Source: an uncultured Rhodospirillaceae bacterium (GTDB lineage Bacteria > Pseudomonadota > Alphaproteobacteria > Rhodospirillales > Magnetospirillaceae). Taken from it: 64,000 nucleotides of DNA. Shown piece by piece: positions 17,624-33,310 of this stretch; the stretch's first letter is position 1; the number at the start of each line of letters is the position of its first letter. The stretch covers positions 432-64,431 of the forward strand of contig CAIUSV010000065.1 in NCBI GenBank assembly GCA_903901915.1. The letters are read 5' to 3'. A model generated the notes under the pieces. The model searched no databases and was not told the DNA's origin. It saw only the letters and a program-made list of their open reading frames with translations. Both the position numbers and the translations under genes were made by a program.

Positions 17624-17697
17624 TGGGGGATCGTCTAACGGTAGGACAGCGGACTCTGACTCCGCCAGTCTAGGTTCGAATCCTAGTCCCCCAACCA
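17624..17697 (+). tRNA. tRNA-Gln(CUG)
   Basis: Cloverleaf: acceptor TGGGGGA/TCCCCCA, anticodon stem GCGGA-CTCTGAC-TCCGC, T-loop GGTTCGAATCC, encoded CCA. Confidence 0.97.
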
Positions 17698-17706
17698 ACT
17701 TTTTCC
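17653..17706 (+). repeat. att direct repeat, tRNA-proximal copy
   Basis: ACTCTGACTCCGCC...TCCCCCA[A]CCAACTTTTTCC matches 33257-33310 with one mismatch; begins at the anticodon loop. Confidence 0.95.
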
Positions 17707-17851
17707 AATAAATACAATGCGTTAGCAGATCGCTCTTGCGGTCGCATTGCCCAAAAAAAGCATTAGCAGTACATTAGCAGTGGTCCAACGCTGCTCATCG
17801 GCCATTTTGGCCGTGCTGCACCGCAATAAATTGGGCCGCTGCGAGGCGGAA

Positions 17852-19904: not shown

Positions 19905-20342
19905 TTACGCGAGCTTTTTGCCGAAACGACCTTTTGCGGCGGCCAACTGCTTGTCCAGTTCGCCAGCGACCACGGCCTCACGCAGCAGCGTCAAGGTCGG
20001 GACCAATTCGGCCACCGCGCCGACCTCGATGGCCGTCTTCTTGGGCTTCAATTCCAGCACCTTGTTGCCGTAGCGCACTTCCAGCATGAACGCGCCATTG
20101 GTTTCCTGCCAGTACCAGGGACGAAAGCGGATCAGCTTCTCCTGTAGGGTTTTCTCACCACCAGCGCCTTTCACCCAATGCCGACGACGAAGCTGAAAGC
20201 TTTCGCCGGTCTGCATCGCTTCCGCAGCAGCGATCTGCTGGTTGATGGCCTCGACCATCCGATTGCGCAACTGCCCTTCAGGCGTGCTGTTTGCCGTCCT
20301 GCGGGTGTTTTCCATCAGCTTCAGCTTGTCCAACGCGCTCAT
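19905..20342 (-). CDS. Conserved island protein (recalled as DUF6641-like)
   Basis: FRPWYW...LEVRYGNKVLEL...KTAIEVG...AVVAGELD pattern; GGAGG RBS. The family name is from memory and needs an HMM check. Confidence 0.7.
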   Translation of the reverse strand: MSALDKLKLMENTRRTANSTPEGQLRNRMVEAINQQIAAAEAMQTGESFQLRRRHWVKGAGGEKTLQEKLIRFRPWYWQETNGAFMLEVRYGNKVLELKPKKTAIEVGAVAELVPTLTLLREAVVAGELDKQLAAAKGRFGKKLA

Positions 20343-20376: not shown

Positions 20377-20437
20377 AGTTTATAGCTAATCGAAAACCAT
20401 TCTCAACCGAAAGGTGGTCACGAATTGGAATGTCCAC

Positions 20438-20458
20438 GAACATACTTCAAGTATGTTC
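20438..20458. repeat. Palindromic site 1: GAACATAC-TTCAA-GTATGTTC
   Basis: Seen directly; exact reverse complement of site 3. Confidence 0.93.
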
Positions 20459-20526
20459 GTTGCGAGGCGATGCGGTTGAGGGCACAATTCCCCCGTGAAT
20501 GTCTGTGACAATTGGGGGGAAACTGA

Positions 20527-22155
20527 ATGTCCAATGCAGCAGCCGCGAGCTTTGATGAAGCGCTGACGCGGGTTGACACTGAGGTAAAAGCGTTTGAAGA
20601 GAAGGCTTTCGCCGAGCAGGTTTCCCAGGCCGAGAAAAACAGTGCGCTTTATGCGGCGCTGGACAAAGCCTACGCCTTTCACATGAAGTGGGGGGAGCAC
20701 CACCAGTATGCGAAGTTCCTTGCAGACAGGAAGGTGGTAGACGTTCCGCGCGGCTCAAAATCAAGCCAATTCACACCGACCATCAAGGCGTTCTTTGATC
20801 CGTCTTGGGATCAGTTCGACCCGGCAGGTGATGAGAAAAAGAAGAAAGAAAAGGCTCGTCGCCAGAAAACCATCAGCACCTATAGCGGCGTACTGGACTA
20901 CGCCGCGCATGAACGCATCAACGATGTTGTCTCTTTCCTAGCGACGGGTGGCGGCATTGAGGCTGTGCGGATCAAGTGGAAGAAAAAGCGGAGCGAACTC
21001 CCCGAAGAAATCGAGAAACGGCAGAAAGCCGCTGACGTAAAGAACCAACGCTTGGCTTTGGGCCTTGCTGGACTTCAGAAGGGAATGCAAACATCCCTTC
21101 CGTCAGATCCCCATCGCAAAGAAAGCCCCCAGTTAGCCGCGATATATTATGACGAGACTGGTGTTGCCCACTTCCTTGGACTTCCCGACCAAGATGACAG
21201 CGCCAAAGCTCTCTTGGAAAGGTTCTTGCTGTCGAACGCTGGCCCCAATAATCTCACAAAATTGTTGTCGCTTCTGAAAGCCGGTGTGGTCGCTAATGCC
21301 AAAGACGCGAATGTGCTGATCAAGAACGACAAATCTGGTTGCGAGATTCACGCATCAGCGAATAGCAGCGATACATGCGTCGTCTCCGCCAAGTTGCCAC
21401 ATCAAGACTTCCTGCCCGAGGGAACCCATTGGTTCGGCAGCAAGGCCATTCGCGGCTTGAAAAAACTGTCGCCCCTTGGAAAGTACGGCGCTCAATTCAT
21501 AATCACCGGCCCAGCCAAAATTGCTGGCATTGATGCCTCGTGGGAAATCCAGCTCACGGACTATCGGGCGGGCGTGGCGGCGATTGAGGATTGGGATTGG
21601 AACAAAGTCATCCCGGATACGCCCGGTTGCGTCCACACGGAAAATGATGACGTGATGACTATTACCTATGTTTCGACCATCGAGGACATGGCACGCATCA
21701 AGCCGATAGCTGCTTGGGACGGCGAAGTGAATGTTGACGGCGCATTTGCTGATTGGCTGCAAGCCGCTTTGGGCATCAGCAACGATGATGCTAACCAACG
21801 CTTGTTCAAAGCTATCCGCGATGAAGGCCGTCCGACAACCGCGTTTAGGATCACCGACAGCGCCTGGACAATCACTGACGAGCAAGGTGACGTTGTAACC
21901 TATGCGTTCCAAGCCCCTATAAGCAGCTCGAAATTCACCATCGAAATGGCCGTTGGCTCGAAGGACATTCTGACCGCCATTGATGCGGTCAAAGCACTTG
22001 TGGATGGGGGAACAGTGAGCATCTCACTCGTCGACAAGCTGATGCGCGTTCAGTGCAAGAAGGGCAGCGTGTTGGCTGAGGTCTTCATCCCGTCAATCGG
22101 CACTGATGGGCGGCATCAGGCTTATACCGAATTCGACCAGCCATTGACCGCATGA
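20527..22155 (+). CDS. Large hypothetical protein (542 aa)
   Basis: Long ORF in a lower-GC region with GGGGG RBS; no family recognised. Confidence 0.8.
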   Translation: MSNAAAASFDEALTRVDTEVKAFEEKAFAEQVSQAEKNSALYAALDKAYAFHMKWGEHHQYAKFLADRKVVDVPRGSKSSQFTPTIKAFFDPSWDQFDPAGDEKKKKEKARRQKTISTYSGVLDYAAHERINDVVSFLATGGGIEAVRIKWKKKRSELPEEIEKRQKAADVKNQRLALGLAGLQKGMQTSLPSDPHRKESPQLAAIYYDETGVAHFLGLPDQDDSAKALLERFLLSNAGPNNLTKLLSLLKAGVVANAKDANVLIKNDKSGCEIHASANSSDTCVVSAKLPHQDFLPEGTHWFGSKAIRGLKKLSPLGKYGAQFIITGPAKIAGIDASWEIQLTDYRAGVAAIEDWDWNKVIPDTPGCVHTENDDVMTITYVSTIEDMARIKPIAAWDGEVNVDGAFADWLQAALGISNDDANQRLFKAIRDEGRPTTAFRITDSAWTITDEQGDVVTYAFQAPISSSKFTIEMAVGSKDILTAIDAVKALVDGGTVSISLVDKLMRVQCKKGSVLAEVFIPSIGTDGRHQAYTEFDQPLTA

Positions 22156-22275
22156 AGGACGCAACATTACTGAGCTTGTTGACGGCATTGCTATGATATA
22201 CCCTTAGAAAAATTGTCAAATTTCGCCTGAACTACTTGGGCGTAATTACAGCAAAAGTGTTGGGGGAGATGCTGC

Positions 22276-23061
22276 ATGAGTTCACCTGACACCATTGGCA
22301 AACTGGGCAAGGCACATTCAGCCCTCAATGGCGGCAGTGCTAGCGCAGCTAAAACAAAATCGCTAGGTGGCGTCGTCGGAAAGATGGCGGGTCAGTCTTC
22401 CCAACTTTCCGGGACAAGTTCGGGGGCTGCCAAGGCTTCCTCCACCAGCATCGCTCTCGGCAAGATCAGCATCCCCTACACCCACCTTACTGGGGTCGGC
22501 TCCGGAACTATCAACGTGACCTCAGCCGGGATCGCGAACGGGACCAAGCTGATTTCATCCATATGTTCCGGAAAAGGGCTGAGCCTCGGCCTCGGCCTGG
22601 GTCTCGGCGCTTGGGGGCCTGCATTGATTGCGGGAACCGTTTGCGTTGCTGGGTATGGGGCCTATCGGATGTATGCCGCCAATCCAAAGGGCAAACCCCG
22701 CTCTCGGAGCAAGAGTGGTCAAGAGACCGCCACATTAGCCTCCCAGGTCGCGTCAATGGCTGATGCCGTTTTCGCCGCAGGATACGGAGCATTTAGAAAG
22801 CTGGTATCCTCTCCTGATGATGAGGCGGCCCTGGCTGCCGAGCTTGCCGCCGAAATTGCAGCCGCCGGGAAGCTAATCGCCGAGGCCAACGAAGCTGAGA
22901 AGCGTGCATTAGCCGCCGGTGCCAATGCCAAGCAGGCCATCAAGTTGGCAGCCGCCGCCAAGCGGAAGGCAAAAGCTGCATTGGACCTCCAGCACTCCAC
23001 AGAATCCAAGCTGGCGGCTACTCGGGCGCGAAAGCGGAAGGAAGCTGCCGCCAACGTGTAG
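22276..23061 (+). CDS. LG-repeat magnetosome-type membrane protein (Mms6/Mms5/MamG-like motif) with Ala/Lys-rich tail
   Basis: SGKGLSLGLGLGLGAWGPALIAG...YGAYRMY matches the Mms6/MamG/MamD signature GKGLGLGLGLGLGAWGP. Confidence 0.8.
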   Translation: MSSPDTIGKLGKAHSALNGGSASAAKTKSLGGVVGKMAGQSSQLSGTSSGAAKASSTSIALGKISIPYTHLTGVGSGTINVTSAGIANGTKLISSICSGKGLSLGLGLGLGAWGPALIAGTVCVAGYGAYRMYAANPKGKPRSRSKSGQETATLASQVASMADAVFAAGYGAFRKLVSSPDDEAALAAELAAEIAAAGKLIAEANEAEKRALAAGANAKQAIKLAAAAKRKAKAALDLQHSTESKLAATRARKRKEAAANV

Positions 23062-23321
23062 TCCATTTTCATGAAGCATTATTTCCAAAAATGCGAAAAC
23101 TCACAGCCACATCGCCCCCGCACATAGTTGCGAGCGCCTCTTACTATTAGAGCAAACCCGAACCCACAATAAATTTCTCTGGACAGATTTCGCCTCTGCT
23201 TGCGAGAATGGGGGCGTATTATGATATATGTGCATACCAGCCTATATCTCTCCGAAGGGGCTCGGGGTATCTTCAGCAGAACGGTTTGTCGCTCTGCGTC
23301 ATTGTTTAGGGAGCTGTTAGC

Positions 23322-24338
23322 ATGCTTGACCAAATGATCATGGCCAAGGTCGAGGGAACCACCCAGGCAGCTCTCCTGTCGTCGATGACCGGAAATTCCT
23401 ACACGGTCGGCCAAGTTACTGCTACTGGAAATGGAATGGGACACTGGTTGTTCCTGAACCCCGCTGGCGCTACCGCTGGAAAAGGGGCCGTCGCCCTCAA
23501 ACTGGAAGGTGCCCGTCAGGTCGCGCAGTTGTCGGGGATGGTGGGCAAGACCGTTACCATCGGAAAAGCCCCCCTCGTTGCAGATGGTGTGAGCAAATGG
23601 CTTGTGCTGTGCCCCAAAGCCGGTATCGCAGCAAAGGGCGCTGCCGTTGCTGCGGGCGCTGCCGGTGCTGGTGGTCTGACTGCTGCCGCCACCCAGGGCG
23701 GCGGGAACGGCATGATTATGATGAAGCTCGAAGGCGCAAGACAGGCCGGGCAGGTCCAGATGATGACCGGCAAGACTTTCATGGTGGCAAAGACCACTGC
23801 CGCCGGGAATGGAGCCGCCAATTGGCTATTCCTTCAGCCCGTTGGTGAAACCGCTGCTACCATGAAGGATCTGGTGGTCCTCAAGGTTCAACATGGAGCT
23901 GGGCAGATGCCATGGCTGGTCGGCAAGACCTTCGCTATTGGCGAATCTCCGATGATGGCCGGTACGACGAGCAAGTTCCTGGTTCTCAATCCTGTGACTG
24001 GTGTCGCAGCCAAGGGCGCGGCCGGAACCGCAATCGCCGCCAAGGGAGCCATGCAGACTGTGGCATTGCAGACCGCCGGTAAAACTGCTGTGGCGGGTTC
24101 GGTTGCCAAGGGTGCCGCTGCTGGCGCCGCCACCAAGGGTGCCGCCGCTGTCGGCACTCTATGGACTGGTACCGGCATGAGCTTGGGCCTTGGTTTGGGA
24201 CTCGGCGCTGCTGGTCCTGTCATCCTGGGTGGCGTCATCGCCGCAGCCGGTTACGGCATTTACCGCTACCGCAAGGCCCGGACCACCTCGGCAGCATCCG
24301 AGGTTGATGACGCGATCTCGGACGCAGTGACGGCTTAG
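23322..24338 (+). CDS. mamD: Magnetosome protein MamD (Mms7)-like
   Basis: Four roughly 40-aa internal repeats (KLEGARQ...GKT(F/V).(V/I)...WL(F/V)L.P), GTLWTGTGMSLGLGLGLGAAGP, a TM helix and the acidic tail SEVDDAISDAVTA. Confidence 0.88.
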   Translation: MLDQMIMAKVEGTTQAALLSSMTGNSYTVGQVTATGNGMGHWLFLNPAGATAGKGAVALKLEGARQVAQLSGMVGKTVTIGKAPLVADGVSKWLVLCPKAGIAAKGAAVAAGAAGAGGLTAAATQGGGNGMIMMKLEGARQAGQVQMMTGKTFMVAKTTAAGNGAANWLFLQPVGETAATMKDLVVLKVQHGAGQMPWLVGKTFAIGESPMMAGTTSKFLVLNPVTGVAAKGAAGTAIAAKGAMQTVALQTAGKTAVAGSVAKGAAAGAATKGAAAVGTLWTGTGMSLGLGLGLGAAGPVILGGVIAAAGYGIYRYRKARTTSAASEVDDAISDAVTA

Positions 24339-24416
24339 GCAAGACGATATGCTTGCCCCTTACGTGTTCACACTTCGTGCGGTGTAAGCTCAGCATGAAC
24401 AGGAGGACGTTGGTCT

Positions 24417-25220
24417 GTGACTGATGTCCCTAAAAAAGGTCGAAAGCGGGCAAGCTCCTGTTCCAATGCATCAGGTGAAATACCCTGCGCTGCTGCGTGT
24501 TCAAGCATTGCCGTGCCCCCATCGGAGCGTAAAGACAACCACGAAGAGCGTGGGGAACGAGGCACATTCATTGAAGAATGCCTCGCCCTCATGCCCAAGG
24601 TTGAAGCTGGTCTGAGTGCATACCGTTCATCAGCAATTGCCCATCTCGAAAGCCCACCAAGTAGCATCATTCGCTTCATGGCCAATGGTGCAACTGCCCA
24701 TACTCTGACGGATTTGGCATGCTTTGCGACGGCGTTTGAAGCGGCCCTACTTTATGGGGAAACGGAGGGATGGACGGATAGTCTGACCGAGGTTTCCGAG
24801 AAGAGCTTCGCCATGCTGTCACTTCATCTGGAGGTGGCTAAAGCCGGGGCGGACTGGAACTCAGATTGGGACATTGATTTAGTTGCAGACCTGATGATCG
24901 CCGCCAGCTCGCTGGACCAAATTGTGGATAAAGTGGCGGATAACTCACCACACCAATCGGGCATGAGCGTTGGCGAAGAAAGCTCCTCGGCCCATCTACA
25001 CCCCAGCCCACAGATGTCCCAGGTTCACTATCACAAGCAAGCCACCACCCTTTGGGATGGTCGGGAAAGTCTATTTCTCAAGCTTTGGAGCGTTTTGTCA
25101 CGAACAACGGCGACATGGTCGAGTGTGAAAACGAGTAAGCCTACCAGCACGGTCAAACGCCCTAAAAAAGCTAGGCGCTCGCGCGGCGAAGACGATCCGA
25201 TCCTGGAAGCTCTTCGCTAA
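24417..25220 (+). CDS. Hpt/CheA-P1-like protein lacking the phosphoacceptor His segment
   Basis: FIEECLALMPKVEAGL...IIRFMANGATAHTLTDLACFATAFE aligns by eye to CheA P1 (F.EE..ELL..LE..L...IFRAVHSIKGGAGAFGLDDLVAFAHVFE). Confidence 0.55.
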   Translation: MTDVPKKGRKRASSCSNASGEIPCAAACSSIAVPPSERKDNHEERGERGTFIEECLALMPKVEAGLSAYRSSAIAHLESPPSSIIRFMANGATAHTLTDLACFATAFEAALLYGETEGWTDSLTEVSEKSFAMLSLHLEVAKAGADWNSDWDIDLVADLMIAASSLDQIVDKVADNSPHQSGMSVGEESSSAHLHPSPQMSQVHYHKQATTLWDGRESLFLKLWSVLSRTTATWSSVKTSKPTSTVKRPKKARRSRGEDDPILEALR

Positions 25221-25242
25221 ATCAGAGGGTTGGGAGGATATT

Positions 25243-25431
25243 ATGATCACAAGCACCGTGACTGGATCGAAAATCGCTGCCGCAAGTGCTCCAGGGTTGG
25301 GCAAAGCCGCCATATTGATCTTGAGCGCCAGCATGGGTGTCGGTGTCTTGATCGGCTTGTCACTGGCGACCGCTGCGGGCGGTTTCTATGTCTGCCGCAA
25401 GTTGTCCGGTGCGGCTGAACCTGTCACATAA
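25243..25431 (+). CDS. Small single-pass membrane protein (62 aa)
   Basis: GGGAGG RBS; hydrophobic segment AAILILSASMGVGVLIGLSLATAAGGFYV followed by RK. Confidence 0.65.
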   Translation: MITSTVTGSKIAAASAPGLGKAAILILSASMGVGVLIGLSLATAAGGFYVCRKLSGAAEPVT

Positions 25432-25455
25432 TGTCACACTCATTCCACATCTAGG

Positions 25456-25794
25456 ATGCAGTGTCCCATGGATGAGGACGAATTGGCGTGGCTTGCATCA
25501 AAAATAGTGATTGCATGGTCACGCCGAAACGAGAATTCCAGCGATAAGCTCTTCGATTTGAATGAGGACATTACGCAGTCGATGCGTGCCATTCTCGGCC
25601 AAAACCCTGCGAAGCTCGCCGCAGTTCGTGGCAGCCGTACACTCAGTGAAATCGGATGCCGGAAATCACTGCCCTCCCTCGTTCATCTGTTCTTTTGCGA
25701 TTCCTGCGGAAAGATTTTCCGCAACATGGCATCAGAACTTCACCACAAGCGGTACTGTTCCCCAAGAGATGAGCAGCACCGTCAATTAGGATAA
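25456..25794 (+). CDS. Divergent, C-terminally truncated Ros/MucR-like zinc-finger protein
   Basis: LASKIVIAWSRRN...KLFDLNEDI resembles the Ros N-terminus (LTADIVAAYVSN...LPGLISDV); RKS...CDSCGKIF...HHKRYC resembles its zinc finger. Confidence 0.55.
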   Translation: MQCPMDEDELAWLASKIVIAWSRRNENSSDKLFDLNEDITQSMRAILGQNPAKLAAVRGSRTLSEIGCRKSLPSLVHLFFCDSCGKIFRNMASELHHKRYCSPRDEQHRQLG

Positions 25795-25821
25795 GAGGAT
25801 TTTCAGCGTCCTGTCCCTTGA

Positions 25822-27327
25822 TCAATGCTTTGTGGCGGTCTGGTCGATCCGCGTTATGATTTCTACCCACCGCATCCAGTCGTCGAGATTGTTTTCAAAC
25901 TCGACCAAAAGGGCAACGGAGCGACTACCATCACGACGGATTTCCTGAAATTTCTTCACCCCCAGAACCACATCCATATTCGGGCAGATAATCTTGGTGA
26001 CGGCCTTGACCTCGGCTCCATGAGTCTCGAATTTGACGCCGTGCATGGAAAGATTGATGGCAGCCGTTTCCCGCTTCTCACCATCAGCACTGATCCATTG
26101 AATTTCCATGGCTCCGGAAGGCACTGCAACACGCAATGAAAACCGTCGCTCGACCTTGACAGCTTCGCTTTCCGCGATAAGAAGCTTCCGCCGCAATTTT
26201 TCCGCGTCATCAAGGGCACCTTTGACCTTGGCGTCTATGTACTGGGAGGCAAGGTCCACCGGAACGGCTGGTTCGGCCTTGGCAGCCGCTCGTCGCCGGT
26301 AGACGATCAAAGCTCCAATAACACCGCCCACCAACAAAAGAACAATCTCCCATATGGAGGACTGACTGGTTTGCGTATCCGCAGGAGCTACGGGCTGGGG
26401 CGCAACCGGCTCAGCCATCCTTGTTTCGATGGGGGGAGAAAGCGGCTTTGGGGCGGGTTGCTCCCTCGGCTGAACCTTCGCAGCGATCTCGGGAATTGTG
26501 GTCAGGGCTATGGCGGCTCGATGCTCGTGGTCGTCCGGTAGGGCTTCCTTGACGATAGCACTGGAATGCTGCTGCAAGGCCGTCATGGCCTTCTGCAATT
26601 GCTCAACGGGATTTTCCTGAGCAGCCACCCGCATGGGCAGATATTGGGCACTCGCTGCCTTGGCCCAGGTCTTCAGATAATAGGAGGTTCCAGACAAATC
26701 CCAGATGATCAGCCGATCCCCGATCAGTTTGGCGATGCCCGGCATCTGGCCTTCGATCAGATCGATATTGCGGGCGTGGTACAAGGCACCGAGCTTTTCA
26801 AACCGCTTGCGCTTTGAGATCCCGGCATCCTTCATGTGTTGATACTGACGGTTCAGATCGTCATAGCGGGAGTCCGCTTGAACCTCCTTGCTGAGATAGC
26901 CCAGCTTGGCATCCCAAATCTCAGGCTCACCATCGGATATGATCACGGCCAGTTTCGTCGAAGGCTTCGCGTAATTCAGCAGATAGCGAAAGGGCATCTC
27001 CAAATCTGTCGCTTTGCCAACCGTTTCAATGCCGTCGATGGCCCGGTTCACGGCATTGATGTCGGTGGCGGTATCACGGTCGATGGCGAGGTGACGGTAC
27101 AGGGCTTCGTCGAACCCAACGATTTCGATCTTATACGGATTGTCGAAGGTCTTCAGGAAGGTAAGCAGCCAGGCCTTGGAGGCAAGTTTTGGATCATGCT
27201 TTCCAACCGATCCCGATTGATCGAACAAGATGATAATGTCCGGCTGTTCTTGGGCTAAAACTGGGCGAACAGGGCCAAGAACAACACTGGCAATCAGGGC
27301 GGCAGCCAGAATGATGCGAGCAAGCAT
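25822..27327 (-). CDS. Signal peptide-vWA-TM-PilZ protein
   Basis: MIDAS motif FDQSGSV and ISDGEP; TM WEIVLLLVGGVIGALIVY; PilZ motifs RRFSLR and NLSMHG. Confidence 0.8.
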   Translation of the reverse strand: MLARIILAAALIASVVLGPVRPVLAQEQPDIIILFDQSGSVGKHDPKLASKAWLLTFLKTFDNPYKIEIVGFDEALYRHLAIDRDTATDINAVNRAIDGIETVGKATDLEMPFRYLLNYAKPSTKLAVIISDGEPEIWDAKLGYLSKEVQADSRYDDLNRQYQHMKDAGISKRKRFEKLGALYHARNIDLIEGQMPGIAKLIGDRLIIWDLSGTSYYLKTWAKAASAQYLPMRVAAQENPVEQLQKAMTALQQHSSAIVKEALPDDHEHRAAIALTTIPEIAAKVQPREQPAPKPLSPPIETRMAEPVAPQPVAPADTQTSQSSIWEIVLLLVGGVIGALIVYRRRAAAKAEPAVPVDLASQYIDAKVKGALDDAEKLRRKLLIAESEAVKVERRFSLRVAVPSGAMEIQWISADGEKRETAAINLSMHGVKFETHGAEVKAVTKIICPNMDVVLGVKKFQEIRRDGSRSVALLVEFENNLDDWMRWVEIITRIDQTATKH

Positions 27328-27340
27328 GTCCGCCTCCCGT

Positions 27341-28192
27341 CTATTCTAGGTTGGACAGAATGGTCGAACGCTTCTCCGCAAGGAAGTCCTTGATCTCGGT
27401 CTCGGCCATGAGCTTCCGCTCCGAGGCGAAGGTCGAGAAATATTCATGGATGCTGTCGAATTCGGCTGTAACTTTCTCGATCAGCTGACGCCGCAAGTCC
27501 GTGACCTCGGTCTGATAGCTGCTCTCAAACCGTTCCTGAAGCCGCGATTTCTCGGACTCCGTCCACGCCATGATCTTGGACAGTGCCAATTCCTTCTGTG
27601 CGGCGACGGCCTCTTCCATCTCGGCTACTTTTTCCCGGCGGCGCTCGTCGATATCCCGATCCAACTCGGCCATCTCAGCCTCAATCTCACGCTGCCGAGC
27701 CAAGAGAGTGGTGATGCTCTCGTCGAGAGCGTCCTTTGTTCGGGTGAGGTCAGTGACATCAGAGGACAATTCAACCACATGCGTTCTCTTGCGGTCGGCC
27801 TCCTCCTGAAGGTCAGAGACTAGCTCCACCAACTTCTGCTCAACCTCGCGAAGCTCTCTCACACGGGTTTCAGCCGCAACCTTTGTCGTGATTGCAGCAT
27901 TGATTTCTGCTTGCTCAGCCGCCAGCTTCTCGGCTTTACGGGCATCCACTCCCTGCTCAAATTCACGGATAGAGGCGAGAAGCGTATCTTCTCTTGCGGC
28001 AAGCGCATTCACCCGAAGCTGAAGCTCGGCCTTCTGCCGGGTAAGCTTCCCAGCGTCATCGATACCCTGAAAGTTTATTGAACGGCTATCTTTGGGGACT
28101 GGTTTTGTCTTGTTGCGATCAGCCAGTTTGGACACGCCAACCATTACGGCCAAAAATCCACATGCTGACAGAGCGATAAGAAGTATCGGCAT
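27341..28192 (-). CDS. Membrane-anchored long coiled-coil protein
   Basis: N-terminal hydrophobic anchor MPILLIALSACGFLAVMVGV followed by E/K/R/A-rich heptads; co-oriented with the vWA gene. Confidence 0.8.
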   Translation of the reverse strand: MPILLIALSACGFLAVMVGVSKLADRNKTKPVPKDSRSINFQGIDDAGKLTRQKAELQLRVNALAAREDTLLASIREFEQGVDARKAEKLAAEQAEINAAITTKVAAETRVRELREVEQKLVELVSDLQEEADRKRTHVVELSSDVTDLTRTKDALDESITTLLARQREIEAEMAELDRDIDERRREKVAEMEEAVAAQKELALSKIMAWTESEKSRLQERFESSYQTEVTDLRRQLIEKVTAEFDSIHEYFSTFASERKLMAETEIKDFLAEKRSTILSNLE

Positions 28193-28387
28193 AATCCCCC
28201 CCCCAAATGGGCAACGGCCATAATCGCTTAGACTAGCACATCCGGTATTACCGCCCATGCCAAAAGTCGAGGACGCTGAACATGAACGATCAGGGAATTT
28301 TGCGAATGCTTGTCATGTTGAGCATCAGAAAAAGCCCTATCACGACTAGGTCCATTTCTATGCAGACTAATCTCGGCAGTTCCCCAC

Positions 28388-28408
28388 GAACATACAGCAT
28401 GTATGTTC
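28388..28408. repeat. Palindromic site 2: GAACATAC-AGCAT-GTATGTTC
   Basis: Seen directly, immediately after the stop codon at 28411. Confidence 0.93.
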
Positions 28409-28410
28409 AG

Positions 28411-28704
28411 CTACCTCGCCGCTGATAGCCGCTCAATTTCGTTCCCAACCCGACCACGCAGCGCGACGAGTCTAGTGCAATTGTCCCGTTCCATCTCGGT
28501 CGTCGCCACGGCGGCATATTTGGCCGTGATGGAAGTGAGCCGCTGCGACAGCCGCATCAGCACCAGCAGCGACGGTGGCCGCTGCCGTGCCTTGGCACAG
28601 GACATATAGCTGCGAGATTTCCCAAGCCAAAACCGCGAAAACTCGTACTGGCTCTCGACCATCCACATATCGCGCAATTCCCCATAGATGACTTCCAGCA
28701 GCAT
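28411..28704 (-). CDS. Conserved small island protein (recalled as DUF6626-like)
   Basis: IYGEL...VESQYEFSRFWLGKSRSYMS; GGGAGG RBS. The family name is from memory. Confidence 0.65.
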   Translation of the reverse strand: MLLEVIYGELRDMWMVESQYEFSRFWLGKSRSYMSCAKARQRPPSLLVLMRLSQRLTSITAKYAAVATTEMERDNCTRLVALRGRVGNEIERLSAAR

Positions 28705-29728
28705 GGCCGTTCCTCCCAAGCGTTTCCGACCAGCTATTTATCCCTGACGCTAAATACGCTTGCGGAGCAGCGCCACGCTGGACGCTGCCGCACGGAGGAG
28801 AAAATGCCATGAACAGACGGATCTATTTGCCGAGGGGGTATTGCGAGATTGGCTTTGCCAACGAGATCGTGACCATTGATCAAGCGGTCAGGCTGGCCAT
28901 ACAGTCAAGCCTGACGAAAGCAGCGCAGAAAGCCAAAGGAAATTGTTGAAGGAAATTTTACGGAAATTTTTAATTTTGGCCTGAAACCGAGCATAAATAC
29001 ATATGGCCGGAGACGGCATATCATAACGTCCATAAAACGAAGCAGGCGGCGCGATACAAATAGAGTGCCCGAAACGACAGTAGGGCAACTTCGAGACGTA
29101 AGATGGAAATCTTTAAACCCGCGCAAAAAGGATCAGTCAGCAGATTAGCACGCTGCATGACTGAAACTGCGGCCAAGGCGCGGGAGTGCGATAAAGCACA
29201 CGGATTGAGTCCCCGTAAAGGTCTCGGCGCTGATACCAGTGTTAGGTGTCGCCGTAGTTGCTTGCAATCGCATAACCGCACTGAGCGTAAAGCTCAGGAG
29301 AGACGCTTCCACAGGTAAGGAATTCGGGTGCCGCCTTAACTGAAGCGAAATAACACGGCGACGGAAAAAACCGCCCCATCTCTTCCCCCACTGTCAGGCG
29401 CTTCTTCAAGAAGTTAATCGGTAAGGACACATCTCCCTGTGTCTTCCCGTAGTCAGTCAGTGGGGGGAGAAATGTGACTCGGGAAAAAGACCCTTTGAAA
29501 AAAACAAACTGATAAACTCATTGAGTTCAATTCAAGCGATATAGCCATTCCAGCTACAAAGACACTCCAGACAGAAAGCAATCGGACTAACCAACTGATT
29601 GATAAGTTGAAATTTCAGGGATTTACGTCGAATTCACTGCTGCTTTCACCCGGAGAAATCAGACAGATGGACTTACGTCATCCAAGCTATAAATATTCAC
29701 ATAAAGGAAACCTGACAGGAGATGACAC

Positions 29729-29944
29729 ATGCGAGCTATAGAATTCATGGAGGCCGACACACCAGCCAAGACCAATGCTGACAATCTGAAGCGACAGGCC
29801 GATGCGAAGGCCGAACAGGCCAAAAAGCTCAAGCAAGCCGCTTCCGTTCAGAAGAAGCGCGAGCAAGTCAACAGCACGAGGGCCTCGTTGATGACGAAGC
29901 AGGGCGAGTTGAGCAAGCTCACGGCTTCCAGCGCCAACGCCTGA
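29729..29944 (+). CDS. Small basic coiled-coil protein (71 aa)
   Basis: AGGAG RBS; A/K/Q-rich helix. Confidence 0.65.
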   Translation: MRAIEFMEADTPAKTNADNLKRQADAKAEQAKKLKQAASVQKKREQVNSTRASLMTKQGELSKLTASSANA

Positions 29945-30085
29945 GCAAAACATAATAAAAACACAGATTTCTTATGTTTGCCGTTATCCGCTTGATTATC
30001 AACGCAGATAATCGCCGTAGCGATGTCGGCGTTTTCACTCATATAATGTTTTACCTAGTGCGATAACATTTCATTAGGTAAAGCG

Positions 30086-30655
30086 ATGAAACAGGCCAAG
30101 GTACTCAGCGAAGCGGAACTGAAGCGCGTGCTGTCCGTGATCGCCAATCAACGCCATGCAGCACGCAACCGCATAGCGGTCATGCTCAGTTTCTACGGGG
30201 GAATGCGCGTCGGAGAGATCGCCCACTTGAAGGTCGGTGACGTTCTTGATGGTGACGGTCGAGTGCGCGACCAGATCACGCTGTTGGCCAGCTATACCAA
30301 GACCGCCGAAGCAAGAGCGGTGTTCGTCAGCGGTAAGCTGCGGCGTGAGCTTGAGCGGTATGTGCTGTCGGACAACCCAATTGGGGATCGCGCCTCACCG
30401 TTCCTCGTGACGCAAAAGGCCACCGCGTTCTCGGCCAACACGCTGTGCCAGCTATTCGGACAGATTTATGCGCTGGCCGGAATTGATGGTGCGAGCAGCC
30501 ACAGTGGCAGACGCTGGTTTATCACGAATTTGGCCCATAGCGGCGTGTCCGCGAAGGTGATCATGACGCTGGCTGGCCACAAACACATGAGCACGACGCA
30601 ACGCTATATCGAGGTCAACGACCAGATGATGAAAGCTGCGGTCGAAAATCTTTAG
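30086..30655 (+). CDS. Minimal tyrosine recombinase (catalytic domain only)
   Basis: 189 aa with GGMRVGEI (R), YTKT (K), SHSGRRWF (HxxR), LAGHKHMSTTQRY (H, Y). Confidence 0.93.
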   Translation: MKQAKVLSEAELKRVLSVIANQRHAARNRIAVMLSFYGGMRVGEIAHLKVGDVLDGDGRVRDQITLLASYTKTAEARAVFVSGKLRRELERYVLSDNPIGDRASPFLVTQKATAFSANTLCQLFGQIYALAGIDGASSHSGRRWFITNLAHSGVSAKVIMTLAGHKHMSTTQRYIEVNDQMMKAAVENL

Positions 30656-30671
30656 CCGCTATGGGCTGCGC

Positions 30672-30692
30672 GAACATACTTGAAGTATGTTC
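30672..30692. repeat. Palindromic site 3: GAACATAC-TTGAA-GTATGTTC
   Basis: Seen directly, 16 nt after the recombinase stop. Confidence 0.93.
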
Positions 30693-30698
30693 ATTCGA

Positions 30699-31505
30699 TC
30701 ACGTCGGTACGAGATATTTTGTAGGCCACGTCCAGTGCGTTTTCGCAAACTCTCTCCGTGACAAGTGGCCTTTGTCATTCAAAGTTAAGCCAGGAAATTT
30801 GTTCGCAAGCCATTTCTTGGCGTGGACCATCTTTTCAATTCGATCCTTATTGCTCTTGAACAACGTCGAGTTATTTGCCCCCGACAAATCCCGTATCAGG
30901 ATGTTCTCGCACTTAAATACGCCCATGCCATTGCGAATAGCCTCAAGCGCAAACGCTCCGTCCTCCATGACCGTGCATGAACAATCAAAATACAGCTTTG
31001 TCTTCGGCCTCCGGAAGAACCACAGACCCGTCGATAAATCCCACAGCTTTGTAAACGACAGGCTGTTGTTGTAAGTATCTGGAAATTCTGACCATAGGAA
31101 ATTATAATTGTCTCCGGCATTCCTGCCGTTCATTGGCATTACAATATATATGTTTTCGTCAGTTATTTTATCCAGCTGGCAAAATATCGTTCTGCCATTT
31201 TGGCGGTCGCTCAGAATGCAGTCATTGTCCGCAAAAAACGACCACTCGTCACTTCCATCATAAAAGTCATTGAGGAGCAAATTGCGAGCGCTTGATGCGC
31301 CTATTGCATTCGGGACATTGATATAGCGAATGCGCGGGTCATCAATATACCAATCAGGCTTATACTCTTGAGCCACAATTACGATTTCAGTTATTCCGAC
31401 ATCGAGCAGCCACTCAACCTGACGACGATGGTACTCGACGCGCTTATTTTGCAGGGCCAGGTCGCTTCCCATCCAAGATATGATTCGTGCAATCATCGCT
31501 CTCAC
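30699..31505 (-). CDS. GT-A fold (family 2-like) glycosyltransferase
   Basis: EIVIVAQ...GASSARNLLL...FFADNDC (DxD) pattern; AT-rich coding sequence. Confidence 0.75.
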   Translation of the reverse strand: MRAMIARIISWMGSDLALQNKRVEYHRRQVEWLLDVGITEIVIVAQEYKPDWYIDDPRIRYINVPNAIGASSARNLLLNDFYDGSDEWSFFADNDCILSDRQNGRTIFCQLDKITDENIYIVMPMNGRNAGDNYNFLWSEFPDTYNNSLSFTKLWDLSTGLWFFRRPKTKLYFDCSCTVMEDGAFALEAIRNGMGVFKCENILIRDLSGANNSTLFKSNKDRIEKMVHAKKWLANKFPGLTLNDKGHLSRREFAKTHWTWPTKYLVPT

Positions 31506-31513
31506 CGCAATTG

Positions 31514-32866
31514 TCAGGCTAGCTTCAGCTTTGCCAAGTCTGCTTCCGGGGTCGGGCTGTTGAAGGCGGCAACCAGTCGATCAACCATATCGCCCTTCTG
31601 CTCAACGAGTTGTGCCGATGCGCGATAAACGTAGCGCAGAAACATTTCCATGCTGACATTGGTAAAGTACAGGTAGCCGGTGGGCGATAGTCGTCCCTTT
31701 TCATCCAGGGTCACAAAATCAAACATTGCCCGCACCCAATCCAGCACATCACCCTGCTTGAACAAACGGATGTTCACCGTTGACGTTCCGAGAAACCCAA
31801 ACATTCCTTTGAGCCTTTCCTCAACGCACGGGCCGCAATCGGAATTGGTTGGCGTGCAGTGAACTCGACAGTCCAACCCACAAGACGGCTCAAACCAAGC
31901 CGCATGAAGCACCTTCCGCTGAATAATGTTTGGCGGTCCCTCTCCGTAATAATTGCCCTTCGTCCCAACTGCAAAGCAGGGGTTTGACGAGTCGCAGCTG
32001 ATCGTGAACTCGTCATCATCCAGGAGTTTCCGCAAAGCCCGCTGTAGCAAGGTGAATGTCGCAACGCGCTTTATGCTGGTGACGCCAAGAATATGTATCC
32101 AGCGATGTTTGCTTTTTTTTCCCAGCAAGCCGTCATTACGCATCCGTGAGATTACACGCAAGAGCGTCTTCGTGTTTCGTGCGGCATATCCACCAAATGA
32201 CCAGCCATCAAATGCCTGATCGCCAAGCTTGTCGCGATTACAATATCTCTTCACTTCGTCGTACCAACGCATGACGCCTGTTGGGCCATCGGCCTTAAGC
32301 CCTTGTACGACATTTAGAAGGCGCATCTTCTCCGGTCTGCGGTTCCTCACCTGCCAATCAAAGTTGATTTTTGACCAGTGAAGCGCATCGTCAAATGTGC
32401 GGATTGCCTTGGCTTTTTTGCTGCTGACCGAACCGCTCGGAACATCCATCGCAATCCCGATGTCCGAAATCTCCTCCTGCCATCTCAGGATTTTTTCCCG
32501 CTTGTCGTAGTATTCCCTTGGGGACCAAAGCCCCTTGTAAACCTGAAACCCGCCGCTATCGCTCATCAACGTCGTATCAGGGCGACGGTCCCATATGCCC
32601 GGCGTTTTCTGTTTTGATTTTTCGATATTCAGTTCTGCGCCGCCTGCGCTGTATAGGGCTGCATCATAGACATATGCGCCGTCTTGACTGAGAAAGTTGA
32701 AGTCTCCGAAGCCGCTAAAGTTGTGCTTCAGAAGCACGTTTTGAACGTCATCCTTACTGGAATATTGCATATAACTGCTGTGAATTGCGGGCATGACCGT
32801 CGCATTGTCCTTGCGATAATGCCTGTAGTCAGGAGGATTGTCCCGGTCAGCGTCGAAAATATCCAT
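31514..32866 (-). CDS. tRNA-guanine transglycosylase/DpdA-like protein
   Basis: Ordered TGT motifs DSGGFQ, MDVP, VVQG, DGWSFGG, HILG, SCDSSNP. ORF is open to 33118, but the start is more likely 32866. Confidence 0.85.
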   Translation of the reverse strand: MDIFDADRDNPPDYRHYRKDNATVMPAIHSSYMQYSSKDDVQNVLLKHNFSGFGDFNFLSQDGAYVYDAALYSAGGAELNIEKSKQKTPGIWDRRPDTTLMSDSGGFQVYKGLWSPREYYDKREKILRWQEEISDIGIAMDVPSGSVSSKKAKAIRTFDDALHWSKINFDWQVRNRRPEKMRLLNVVQGLKADGPTGVMRWYDEVKRYCNRDKLGDQAFDGWSFGGYAARNTKTLLRVISRMRNDGLLGKKSKHRWIHILGVTSIKRVATFTLLQRALRKLLDDDEFTISCDSSNPCFAVGTKGNYYGEGPPNIIQRKVLHAAWFEPSCGLDCRVHCTPTNSDCGPCVEERLKGMFGFLGTSTVNIRLFKQGDVLDWVRAMFDFVTLDEKGRLSPTGYLYFTNVSMEMFLRYVYRASAQLVEQKGDMVDRLVAAFNSPTPEADLAKLKLA

Positions 32867-33004
32867 CGTGCAACTCGAATGTGGTGCGATTGAGCCGATT
32901 GAATACGTCGGAGTAAATCGTATGTACGTAGCGCCTCCGCGCAATGGGCAGGATGAGGCTACGTGGCCTTCCATTCTGAGGCAAGTAGCATGGATCGGCT
33001 CGAC

Positions 33005-33025
33005 GAACATACTTGCTGTATGTTT
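33005..33025. repeat. Palindromic site 4: GAACATAC-TTGCT-GTATGTTT
   Basis: Seen directly; one arm mismatch. Confidence 0.88.
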
Positions 33026-33256
33026 GGAGCACCGCCTGGGCCGAACCATCCAGTCAGATTTCCCATTATAGCATACGCTATCAACCGAAGAGCCGCCAAG
33101 AACAAACAACGAACTCATTGCGCCGCAGCGAGCCGCACTGGGCCTAACAGGATGAAAACATTGAGAAATACCAAGAAAAATTAGCAGTTTCGTCAGCAGT
33201 TTGATTTTTGGCTTAAATATGCTATGAAATACAATGTATTACAGCTTCACTAGCAA

Positions 33257-33310
33257 ACTCTGACTCCGCCAGTCTAGGTTCGAATCCTAGTCCCCCAGCC
33301 AACTTTTTCC
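33257..33310 (+). repeat. att direct repeat, distal copy (displaced tRNA-Gln 3' half)
   Basis: 53/54 identical to 17653-17706. Confidence 0.95.

Follow-up and report, generated by a model that had tools for sequence, protein, structure and literature searches.

What might a short palindrome be doing four times within a single tRNA-integrated island, and nowhere else in the genome that carries it? The locus that raises this question lies in a 64,000-nucleotide stretch of DNA from an uncultured Rhodospirillaceae bacterium (hereafter "the window"). The original prediction saw in it an integron-like system that loads and excises cargo around a minimal tyrosine recombinase. Here we argue that the four palindromes are most likely crossover sites for DNA inversion, since a metagenome contains a nearly identical island in which the 10 kb between two of them are flipped and joined precisely at the palindrome. 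With moderate confidence, we propose a system of conservative site-specific recombination that uses the palindromes as its crossover (core) sites and in which inverted pairs with matched spacers flip the DNA. Magnetospirillum and its relatives would carry this system in a family of tRNA-integrated islands.

Four palindromes confined to one island

The motif GAACATAC-N5-GTATGTTY has four exact matches in the window, at 20438-20458 (site 1), 28388-28408 (site 2), 30672-30692 (site 3) and 33005-33025 (site 4), with a chance expectation of 0.00 (100 shuffles). Tolerating up to three mismatches adds no copy in the window, and no copy beyond these four occurs genome-wide (4,099,954 bp in 93 contigs), even when the relaxed core ACATAC-N5-GTATGT is used for the search. 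The motif is thus confined to the island, as first suspected, and is not common genome-wide. In a survey of 185,579 species genomes, the palindrome clusters examined all belong to this same island family, while the other matches are almost all singletons, in numbers close to the chance prediction.

On the plus strand, the spacers of sites 1 to 4 read TTCAA, AGCAT, TTGAA and TTGCT, in agreement with the original prediction. The sequence of sites 1 and 3 is a perfect palindrome of the form 10-N1-10 (GAACATACTT-S-AAGTATGTTC), the central base being C in the former and G in the latter, so that their orientation is told by the centre base alone. It is therefore true, but nearly trivial, that sites 1 and 3 are exact inverted copies of each other over 22 bp. 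The common spacer polarity once proposed (WTGMW) is a weak feature, limited to the centre base in sites 1 and 3 and reversed at the site 1 equivalent of two sister islands, G062 and G061. Such symmetric sites have little directionality, which counts against inversion.

Site 1 is upstream of the genes on both its sides: DUF6641 starts 95 nt away on the minus strand (20342), and a 542-aa gene starts 68 nt away on the plus strand (20527). Site 2 is found 2 nt past the DUF6626 stop codon and 129 nt upstream of a 305-aa coiled-coil gene. Site 3, the reverse complement of site 1, follows the stop codon of the recombinase gene rec189 by 16 nt, as originally noted, and that of a glycosyltransferase (GT) gene by 6 nt. 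Site 4 (GAACATACTTGCTGTATGTTT, with one arm mismatch) precedes attR by 226 nt and lies upstream of TGT, 138 nt from the probable start of that gene at 32866.

The island and its genes

All four sites are nested, as predicted, in a 15.6-kb island integrated at a tRNA-Gln gene (17624-17697, plus strand; ARAGORN and Rfam tRNA). A 59-nt direct repeat (D2, 95% identity) forms attL (17648-17706) and attR (33252-33310). The 510-aa island integrase (17747-19279, plus) is a PHROG integrase with a weak match to Pfam Phage_integrase (26.4 bits, just under the 27.1 cut-off, E 7e-6). It is followed by the 145-aa DUF6641 gene (19905-20342, minus; PF20346), a backbone gene found in every sister island, whose AF2 model (pLDDT 80) gave no fold match.

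The invertible segment (20459-30671) runs from site 1, its left end, to site 3, its right end. It holds the 542-aa gene, magnetosome-like cargo, site 2, DUF6626, a small ORF, a conserved non-coding block, a 71-aa gene and rec189. DUF6626 (28411-28704, minus; PF20331) encodes 97 aa from the ATG at 28704, and the exact product is on record. Its AF2 model (pLDDT 94.5) combines an Xre-like helix-turn-helix with a long helical hairpin, and Foldseek returned weak, non-significant matches to P22 c2, C.AhdI and HigA. Divergent from it is the small ORF (28809-28949, plus; 46 aa), which has a Shine-Dalgarno sequence and a peptide conserved in 12 islands. The next block (28990-29470) is highly conserved and non-coding, with aligned indels that are not multiples of 3, and Rfam contains no family for it. 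Upstream of rec189 lies the 71-aa Lys/Ala-rich gene (29729-29944, plus), conserved across all islands.

Beyond site 3, a second cargo (30699-32866, minus) pairs a 265-aa GT-A glycosyltransferase (30699-31496, a call taken from a protein collection) with a TGT/DpdA-like gene (31514-32866), both from weak Pfam and NCBIfam matches. The terminal segment (33032-33310, plus), which includes attR, is homologous to the sister islands and conserved in the family.

A flipped isomer in metagenomes

The original prediction regarded the sites as recombination joints and foresaw an inversion of 20.4-30.7 kb. A natural isomer of exactly this kind exists in metagenome contigs. Contig L153 (ENA ERZ18633542, two samples) is 100% identical to window positions 29795-30692, that is rec189, its 16-nt flank and the palindrome, but past the palindrome it continues with the DUF6641 flank and the start of that gene (window 20437 to 20309, reversed). 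Precisely at the palindrome, the flank of site 3 on the rec189 side thus meets the flank of site 1 on the DUF6641 side, as expected of an inversion between sites 1 and 3 (20438-30692). From the same sample, contig L157 matches window 29594 to 20449 at 99.99% and ends at the centre of site 1. Both contigs lose homology to the window in the common interval 29594-29794, so they fit a single island; as they are separate short contigs, a second, minimal sister island may also be present in that sample. The window-type junction at site 1 was found in three other samples, one of which also has the window-type junction at site 3. Over 9 kb, about 1 base separates the two isomers. Searches of metagenome contigs did not find the reciprocal joint (542-aa gene, palindrome, GT).

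Spacers and boundaries in sister islands

How do related islands treat these sites? Palindrome arms are invariant in 22 of 23 sites, while the spacers vary. In the three large islands compared (window, G062 and G061), the spacers of site 1, read towards DUF6641, and of site 3, read away from rec189, match within each island: TTGAA/TTGAA in the window, AGCAT/AGCAT in both others. The two sites are always inverted, and in G076 the two sites that flank the core, both TTGAT, are inverted too. The core is itself inverted in all three large islands with respect to the integrase-DUF6641 unit, relative to the usual order in the family.

The palindromes also mark boundaries. Of the homology-block ends between sister islands, 24% fall within 15 bp of a palindrome, vs 1-2% of the sequence. 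G062 homology starts within 2-3 bp of sites 2 and 4 (it begins at 28386 and resumes at 33002). As the original prediction anticipated, cargo between homologous sites differs: the window and G061 have magnetosome-like genes, G062 a two-partner secretion system. Two features speak against inversion: the break in homology between island lineages lies within DUF6626, about 65 nt from its 3' end, and not at the palindrome, and minimal islands carry three empty sites in tandem, about 100 bp apart. Some islands have a single site, upstream of DUF6641. A deletion remnant at this position, which DUF6641 always adjoins, indicates that it is ancestral.

A model for inversion

According to our model, inverted sites with a common central spacer recombine, and the intervening DNA flips; dif modules offer a precedent, for their inversions join sites whose spacers are identical or nearly so (PMC13141974). 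The active pair here would be sites 1 and 3, whose exchange would invert 10.2 kb, from the 542-aa gene and the magnetosome-like cargo through site 2 to the entire core with rec189, and so swap the neighbours of two fixed flanks. The window form has the cargo operon divergent from DUF6641 and rec189 convergent on the GT-TGT operon. Flipping would turn rec189 towards DUF6641 and place the cargo operon downstream of GT-TGT, in the same direction. Sites 2 (ATGCT) and 4 (TTGCT), mutually inverted with one mismatch, may be a second, weaker pair. The flip would presumably alter expression.

The exchange is probably enzyme-catalysed, and the candidate enzyme is the adjacent rec189 (30086-30655, plus), possibly with a partner. 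This 189-aa, catalytic-domain-only Xer-like tyrosine recombinase (PF00589, 86.9 bits) aligns with residues 103-274 of the XerA-type structure 4a8e and has the R, HxxR, H and Y motifs. Position is what suggests the link: the distance from the rec189 stop codon to the palindrome is 8-30 nt in five of five multi-site islands. The original assignment of the sites to this enzyme nevertheless lacks a link of specificity. The palindrome is absent after the stop codon in 9 of 11 close homologues, and G062 has two copies of rec189, 96% identical, one in an island with four sites and the other in an island with none. Identity between the copies of G065a and G065b is 94%, and the site-bearing and site-less groups are not told apart by any alignment column.

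Alternative explanations

Could the palindromes instead be operators, or architectural sites, to which a dimeric protein binds in order to regulate the promoters found at module boundaries, the inversion being a rare homologous exchange between 22-bp inverted repeats and not an evolved function? This is a possible explanation, though clearly the less probable one. Odd-centred perfect palindromes (10-N1-10) resemble TetR- or LacI-type operators. Site 1 lies in a divergent intergenic region, sites 2 and 4 are upstream of genes, and the ancestral position kept by single-site islands is upstream of DUF6641. Sister islands carry further palindromes, among them GTAGGTT-W-AACCTAC and ACTTGTCGGG-N3-CCCGACAAGT, at the same boundaries and also 50-100 bp upstream of the 71-aa/rec189 operon, in arrays of several types there and upstream of DUF6641; their centres leave too little room for the usual 6-8 bp overlap, and they look operator-like. 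Moreover, the palindromes do not covary with the recombinase, and the island encodes an Xre-like protein. Yet no binder was found among the island proteins considered: the helix-turn-helix region of DUF6626 is unchanged across palindrome types, DUF6641 has no DNA-binding fold in its AF2 model, and the small ORF does not covary with the palindromes. Site 3, placed where two genes converge on their stop codons, has no promoter to act on, and a promoter scan gave neither an excess of promoters nor one at any of the sites. Operators also leave the matched spacers of sites 1 and 3 across islands unexplained. As for homologous exchange, 22 bp does not exceed the minimum length that RecA usually requires, yet the isomers differ by just that single base or so.

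The original reading, in which sites 1/2 and 3/4 are direct repeats from which rec189 excises or captures cargo as circles, like an integron without attC, is unlikely. Variable cargo between sites 1 and 2, homology that starts next to sites 2 and 4 and the empty tandem sites of minimal islands would suit it. However, the presumed partners differ at 3/5 (sites 1/2) and 2/5 (sites 3/4) spacer positions, and the equivalents of sites 1 and 2 are inverted, not direct, in G062 and G061. The 91%-identical magnetosome-like block common to the window and G061 begins within the 542-aa gene and passes through site 2, and this gene adjoins site 1 whatever the cargo. The GT gene is an indel beside site 3 that comes and goes without a second flanking site. 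Neither a circle nor a deletion joint was seen in any metagenome contig examined; cassette loading or excision as circles is not indicated.

More doubtful still are dif-like sites for the host XerC/XerD, the island then being a chromosomal counterpart of Acinetobacter dif modules and rec189 being otherwise employed, in multimer resolution of the excised island or as an MpsA-like relaxase. Inversion between identical-spacer sites is dif-module-like (PMC13141974), the host has XerD and XerC homologues, and the inner arm bases CATA...TATG are common to the palindromes and dif. For another role of rec189, similar genes adjoin partition genes on Legionella plasmids, and the conserved non-coding block of the core recalls SGI1, where a tyrosine-recombinase-like relaxase has an adjacent oriT and sRNA (PMC6414798, PMC9299015). 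Against this, the sites are 21 bp long with identical 8-bp arms and a 5-nt spacer, not 11-6-11 with one arm for XerC and another for XerD, and the motif is missing from the rest of the genome, dif region included. The Xer-like arms of the original prediction fit this host poorly, its best dif candidate (ATGTCGCATAA-TGTATA-TTATGGCGATT) sharing just 4 bases per arm.

RNA hairpins (terminators or 3'-end stabilisers) are the least credible, for although sites 2 and 3 follow the stop codons of DUF6626 and rec189 and the palindromes can fold with their flanks into 9-11 bp hairpins at -10 to -15 kcal/mol, these energies are ordinary against shuffles (z -0.4 to -2.0), there is no U-tract, none of the four is called terminator-like, sites 1 and 4 are upstream of genes, and the recombinant joint is left unexplained.

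Comparison with known systems

In the KorA/KorB/KorC network of IncP-1 plasmids, too, short perfect palindromes of several families recur within one family of mobile elements, at promoters and where modules meet. Those palindromes are operators bound by known repressors and are not known to recombine, while the island has a recombinant joint at a site and no binder among the proteins considered. Integrons (IntI, attI, attC) resemble it in their variable cargo beside a tyrosine recombinase gene and short recombination sites, but rec189 scores 33 bits vs 265 for the integron integrase model. The island has neither attC-type imperfect hairpin sites nor an array of promoterless single-gene cassettes, and its cargo consists of multi-gene operons on both strands. 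Tyrosine invertases of the FimB/FimE type, like rec189, have about 190-200 aa, little beyond the catalytic domain, and a gene adjoining the invertible DNA; their inversions re-wire promoter-gene connections, as the island flip may too. The fim switch, however, is 314 bp long with 9-bp repeats, no promoter is established within or beside the island segment, and rec189 reaches 28.8 bits vs the NF007370 cut-off of 221.

The closest analogues are shufflons and the dif modules of Acinetobacter. Shufflons and multiple-inversion systems (R64 Rci/sfx; PMC5430464, PMC11852207) share with the island several inverse sites per locus and a tyrosine recombinase gene that adjoins the array. Their segments flip singly or grouped, and such regions break assemblies. 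Rci has about 384 aa. However, sfx sites are asymmetric and permit inversion only, while the island sites are symmetric, and shufflon segments of a few hundred bp recode the pilV 3' end, while the island segment spans 10 kb and whole operons.

The dif modules are carried by Rep_3/OrfX plasmids (PMC13141974, PMC6449649). Host XerC/XerD cut their pdif sites, which are 28 bp long, with a different arm for each enzyme and a spacer of 6 bp, whereas the island has 21-bp homotypic palindromes unlike the host dif candidate. Unlike these modules, the island is chromosomal, tRNA-integrated and equipped with its own small recombinase, and no module deletion or transfer was seen in it. In both, however, short arm-spacer-arm sites part discrete modules, backbone included; inverse sites invert when their spacers are identical or one position apart; module content varies among otherwise related elements; and the joints fall exactly in the site.

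Four Palindromic Sites in the tRNA-Gln Island

The palindrome GAACATAC-N5-GTATGTTY matches the window at 20438, 28388, 30672, and 33005 (sites S1 to S4), where shuffled sequence gives an expectation of 0.00, and tolerating up to three mismatches yields no fifth copy. When the 4.10-Mb assembly was scanned with the core loosened to ACATAC-N5-GTATGT, nothing appeared beyond S1-S4. The original prediction had counted four sites and no copy outside the island: the count is borne out, and the confinement now extends to the whole assembly. All four lie between attL (17648-17706), which is the 3′ part of tRNA-Gln, and attR (33252-33310), the two ends of an island bounded by a 59-nt direct repeat, with a G+C content of about 53% vs. 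65% in the flanks. Each 21-bp site is made of identical 8-bp arms and a 5-nt spacer, and the likeness of the four, aligned by spacer, reaches only about one base further. S1 and S3 are perfect 10-N1-10 palindromes, so their “polarity” lies in the centre base alone. A promoter and terminator scan gave no signal at S1-S4, and an Rfam search of the island returned only the tRNA.

The island opens with an integrase gene (17747-19279, plus strand) and a DUF6641 gene (19905-20342, minus strand). S1 separates the latter from a plus-strand 542-aa gene, after which the magnetosome-like genes of cargo A run up to 28258; among their products (22276-28258) are LG-repeat proteins, a MamD-like protein (PF28196), and a vWA protein. 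S2 stands between this cargo and the DUF6626 gene (28411-28704, minus strand). Divergent from DUF6626 is a previously unannotated conserved ORF of 46 aa (28809-28949, plus strand) with a strong Shine-Dalgarno sequence, whose peptide YLPRGYCEIGF...EEAV is kept in the closer islands. It is followed by a highly conserved non-coding block of about 480 bp (28990-29470), more conserved between islands than the adjoining genes and with indels that are not multiples of three. No Rfam family matched this block; its candidate identities are a structured RNA, an oriT, or an origin. Next come the 71-aa gene (29729-29944) and rec189 (30086-30655), both on the plus strand, the second encoding a 189-aa recombinase. 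S3 lies between rec189 and a glycosyltransferase gene (GT), which together with a TGT-like gene occupies the minus strand between S3 and S4, and S4 precedes a conserved terminal segment and then attR.

Searches with the exact motif matched 4 of 20 other genomes in the genus and no genome among 62 from the family's other genera. Across 185,579 species genomes there were 93 stretches with a match, for about 140 expected by chance on our own estimate (596 Gb / 4^16), and the clusters examined all belong to the Magnetospirillum/Phaeospirillum group. Scans of JGI metagenomes found no palindrome, while the 16 lone matches in viral contigs were judged to be at about chance level.

The Adjoining Recombinase

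The rec189 product matches PF00589 (Phage_integrase) over residues 5-180 with 86.9 bits (cut-off 27.1). Its motifs GMRVGE, HSGRRW, and GHKHMSTTQRY pair with GLRVSE, HQLRHS, and GHSNLSTTQIY of PDB entry 4a8e, so that the catalytic Arg, His-x-x-Arg, His/Trp, and Tyr fall where solved enzymes have them; the protein is a genuine tyrosine recombinase catalytic domain. Its alignment to XerA and XerD is confined to their C-terminal domains, the PDB alignments beginning at residue 103 or beyond and the Xer-model matches spanning only model positions of about 93-290. It does not qualify as XerA (76.7 vs. 220 bits), XerD (61 vs. 329.6), or XerC (57.4 vs. 335), nor as an integron integrase (TIGR02249, 33.2 vs. 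265; NF011946, 20.6 vs. 435) or a FimB/FimE-type invertase (NF007370, 28.8 vs. 221; NF007371, 20.9 vs. 222). It is probably not OrfX either, since the Acinetobacter matches sit on plasmids of about 110 kb that are not Rep_3/OrfX plasmids.

Homologues of rec189 occur in 28 of 83 family genomes, in up to five copies each, a far wider spread than that of the palindrome. Distant ones (45-57% identical, from five families) neither share the palindrome nor have a clear equivalent of their own, and no arm-spacer-arm site lies alongside the homologue on a Legionella plasmid. The enzyme remains the only DNA-acting candidate adjoining the sites, an assignment made by position. Alternatively, it might serve in multimer resolution, relatives on Legionella plasmids adjoining partition genes, or act as an MpsA-like relaxase on the conserved non-coding block (PMC6414798, PMC9299015).

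What else might bind the sites? The host's dif candidate, ATGTCGCATAA-TGTATA-TTATGGCGATT, differs from the palindrome, sharing only CATA/TATG with it. DUF6626 is modelled with confidence (pLDDT 94.5) as an Xre-like helix-turn-helix and, after it, a helical hairpin; its fold matches are weak. Because the helix-turn-helix region stays unchanged from one palindrome type to another, the protein more likely binds TATTTA-N10-TAAATA, an inverted repeat conserved in its divergent promoter region; located at 28730-28760 between DUF6626 and the small ORF, this repeat is likely the protein's operator. The confident model of DUF6641 has no fold match and no DNA-binding fold. For both proteins, sequence searches of the PDB returned nothing, and no literature was found.

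Palindromes in the Sister Islands

The usual backbone of the island family runs from the integrase through DUF6641 (minus), a palindrome cluster, cargo, rec189 (minus), and the 71-aa gene (minus) to a variable region, the small ORF, DUF6626 (plus), a palindrome, some 2 kb, another palindrome, and the terminal segment. In the window and in two related genomes, G061 and G062, the core is reversed relative to this order. With the arms relaxed, a site is found upstream of DUF6641 and another past the rec189 stop in each multi-site island; the DUF6626 stop is followed by a site in all but one, and islands bearing TGT have one upstream of that gene. In two minimal islands, three sites of this A type stand between rec189 and DUF6641 at spacings of about 100 bp (L016, 10188-10412; L018, 4781-5004). 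Their outer site has altered arms (TCACATAC...GTATGTGA), and a 16-bp palindrome, CTTACTTGCAAGTAAG, separates two of the three.

Could the sites simply be operators? This is the main rival to recombination, a possible but somewhat doubtful reading, and several observations favour it. Nine of 11 close rec189 homologues have no palindrome past their stop codon. In G062, the recombinase of the four-site island is 96% identical to that of a site-less island, and no alignment column splits multi-site from site-less islands. Sister islands carry other perfect palindromes (GTCGTGT-WA-ACACGAC, GTAGGTT-W-AACCTAC, ACTTGTCGGG-N3-CCCGACAAGT, and AAAAGTGCC-N5-TGCACTTTT), none of them present in this genome, which occupy equivalent structural positions and also precede the 71-aa/rec189 operon by 50-100 bp, in many cases several types together. 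Finally, several islands have a lone A-type site upstream of DUF6641, or the deletion remnant of one. Taken alone, the mismatch between rec189 and sites, the other palindromes, and the lone sites would favour operators; the metagenome contigs described below changed that reading.

In all, at least four palindrome families besides that of S1-S4 occupy these module boundaries and promoter-proximal positions in sister islands of G062, G063, G066, G067, G053, and G074 (L047, L049, and L051-L056); in the second island of G062, one palindrome includes the DUF6626 stop codon. As for a determinant of specificity, none of rec189, the 71-aa protein, DUF6626, DUF6641, the small ORF, or the integrase type co-varies with palindrome type.

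Matched Spacers and a Natural Inversion Isomer

Read towards DUF6641 for S1 and away from rec189 for S3, the two spacers are both TTGAA in the window and both AGCAT in G062 and in G061, the sites being in inverted orientation in all three. In a further genome, G076, the two core-flanking sites are both TTGAT and likewise inverted. Invariant arms with variable, pair-matched spacers are the pattern that recombination sites display. In dif modules, inversion occurs only between pdif sites whose spacers are identical or one-off (PMC13141974). Spacer differences amount to 3/5 for S1/S2, 2/5 for S3/S4, and 1/5 for S2/S4, which are inverted; by that rule, the first two pairs should not be expected to recombine, and S2/S4 might.

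A look-up of the exact rec189 protein in public assemblies led to two short metagenome contigs. L152 has the window arrangement of rec189, S3, and GT. L153, from two samples, is 100% identical to 29795-30692 and then, past the palindrome, follows 20437→20309 in reverse; its joint is GGGCTGCGC-GAACATACTTGAAGTATGTTC-GTGGACATTCC, beyond which the sequence reaches the start codon of DUF6641. A 9.3-kb contig from the same sample, L157, follows 29594→20449 with one mismatch and stops at the S1 centre. Because L153 and L157 both depart from window homology within 29594-29794, and the end of L157 is similar to the sequence that precedes the 71-aa gene, they fit one island, in the order DUF6641, site, rec189, 71-aa gene, DUF6626, S2, cargo A, 542-aa gene, site. 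To judge from these contigs, this island is the S1 × S3 inversion isomer of the window, and the 20.4-30.7 kb inversion proposed in the original prediction has found its flipped form, with one of the two joints seen.

Window-type junctions come from three other samples (ERZ27229615, ERZ27313210, and SRR8496322) and the flipped joint from ERZ18633542, so that both orientations exist among near-identical copies, which is what a generic test of site-specific inversion looks for. An assembly chimera is considered unlikely, since common assemblers finish with k-mers longer than the 21-bp repeat. At positions 1-156 of L157, the 71-aa gene has a variant N-terminus and is preceded by unrelated sequence, and a second difference therefore accompanies the inversion. 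The reciprocal joint did not turn up: exact searches for the GT protein (268, 265, and 257 aa) and for TGT (450 and 534 aa) returned only the window's own genome, and in one of the two GT relatives no palindrome separates GT from rec189. Another contig, L158 (ENA ERZ27229615 k141_111137), ends 3 nt beyond S2, where Illumina adapter sequence takes over; this may hint at a preferred DNA end or be an artefact.

The best reading is that S1-S4 are the crossover sites of a site-specific inversion system, to which we give about an even chance.

Module Boundaries and Cargo Exchange

Homology to G062 begins at 28386 and 33002, 2-3 bp from S2 and S4. In G062, apparently M. magneticum AMB-1, the four sites stand at 4,144,442, 4,145,893, 4,148,221, and 4,157,529. 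Between its S1/S2 equivalents, G062 carries as cargo a two-partner secretion system and a protein with a FliG C-terminal domain; this region (L014/L015, C1:4,148,242-4,155,783) encodes a ShlB-type POTRA protein, a 1274-aa TPS-domain exoprotein, and the FliG_C-domain protein. Three features argue against modules bounded exactly by sites: a 91% block common to the window and G061 begins inside the 542-aa gene and runs across S2; GT is an indel beside S3 without a second site; and homology between island lineages ends about 65 nt within the 3′ end of DUF6626, the last ~22 codons of which change in step with the downstream palindrome. Of 386 homology-block ends among sister islands, 94 are no more than 15 bp away from a palindrome, against 1-2% of the sequence; this enrichment is supportive only, given that the comparisons depend on one another and that the sites fall between genes. 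The cargo proteins are 92-100% identical to those of G061 (L019) and the adjacent 542-aa protein only 57%, a difference that shows recent exchange of the cargo block.

A broader proposal, which we consider unlikely, is a self-contained module-shuffling system in which the Xer-like, catalytic-domain-only recombinase acts on palindrome families A to E. The enzyme, perhaps with a small partner protein, would use interchangeable short palindromes delimiting every module; cargo operons, including the magnetosome-like genes, would be inverted, exchanged, and spread between islands, and the system would be the chromosomal equivalent of plasmid dif modules, encoded by the island itself. Integron-like cassette capture, the model of the original prediction, is not borne out and looks very improbable: an IntI-type match and attC sites are absent, the only repeats being the four perfect 21-bp palindromes, and the S1/S2 and S3/S4 spacers are unmatched.

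Significance and Comparison with Known Systems

Should the sites be active for inversion, they would form a second recombination layer within an integrated island, flipping a 10-kb operon block that includes the magnetosome-like genes and rec189 itself. The principle behind dif modules and shufflons would then reach beyond plasmids into chromosomal islands integrated at tRNA genes, and would take in both symmetric 21-bp sites and recombinases without a core-binding domain. Active sites would also account for the mixing of cargo among island copies, of which there are up to five per Magnetospirillum genome. The idea is directly testable, since these genomes apparently include that of M. magneticum AMB-1, a genetically tractable strain.

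Integrons hold single promoterless cassettes flanked by attC, whereas here the cargo is multi-gene, on both strands, and has no attC. FimB/FimE-type invertases resemble rec189 only in length and in their domain-only architecture. The Rci shufflon uses asymmetric, inversion-only sfx sites, whereas S1 and S3 are symmetric but for the centre base. A dif or pdif site is 28 bp long and resembles the host dif, with a XerC arm, a 6-bp spacer, and a distinct XerD arm, whereas the sites described here are 21 bp long with identical arms. The likeness to dif modules lies in their behaviour: there, inverted sites with identical spacers invert, leaving the joint inside the site, as in the one of two joints seen in L153.
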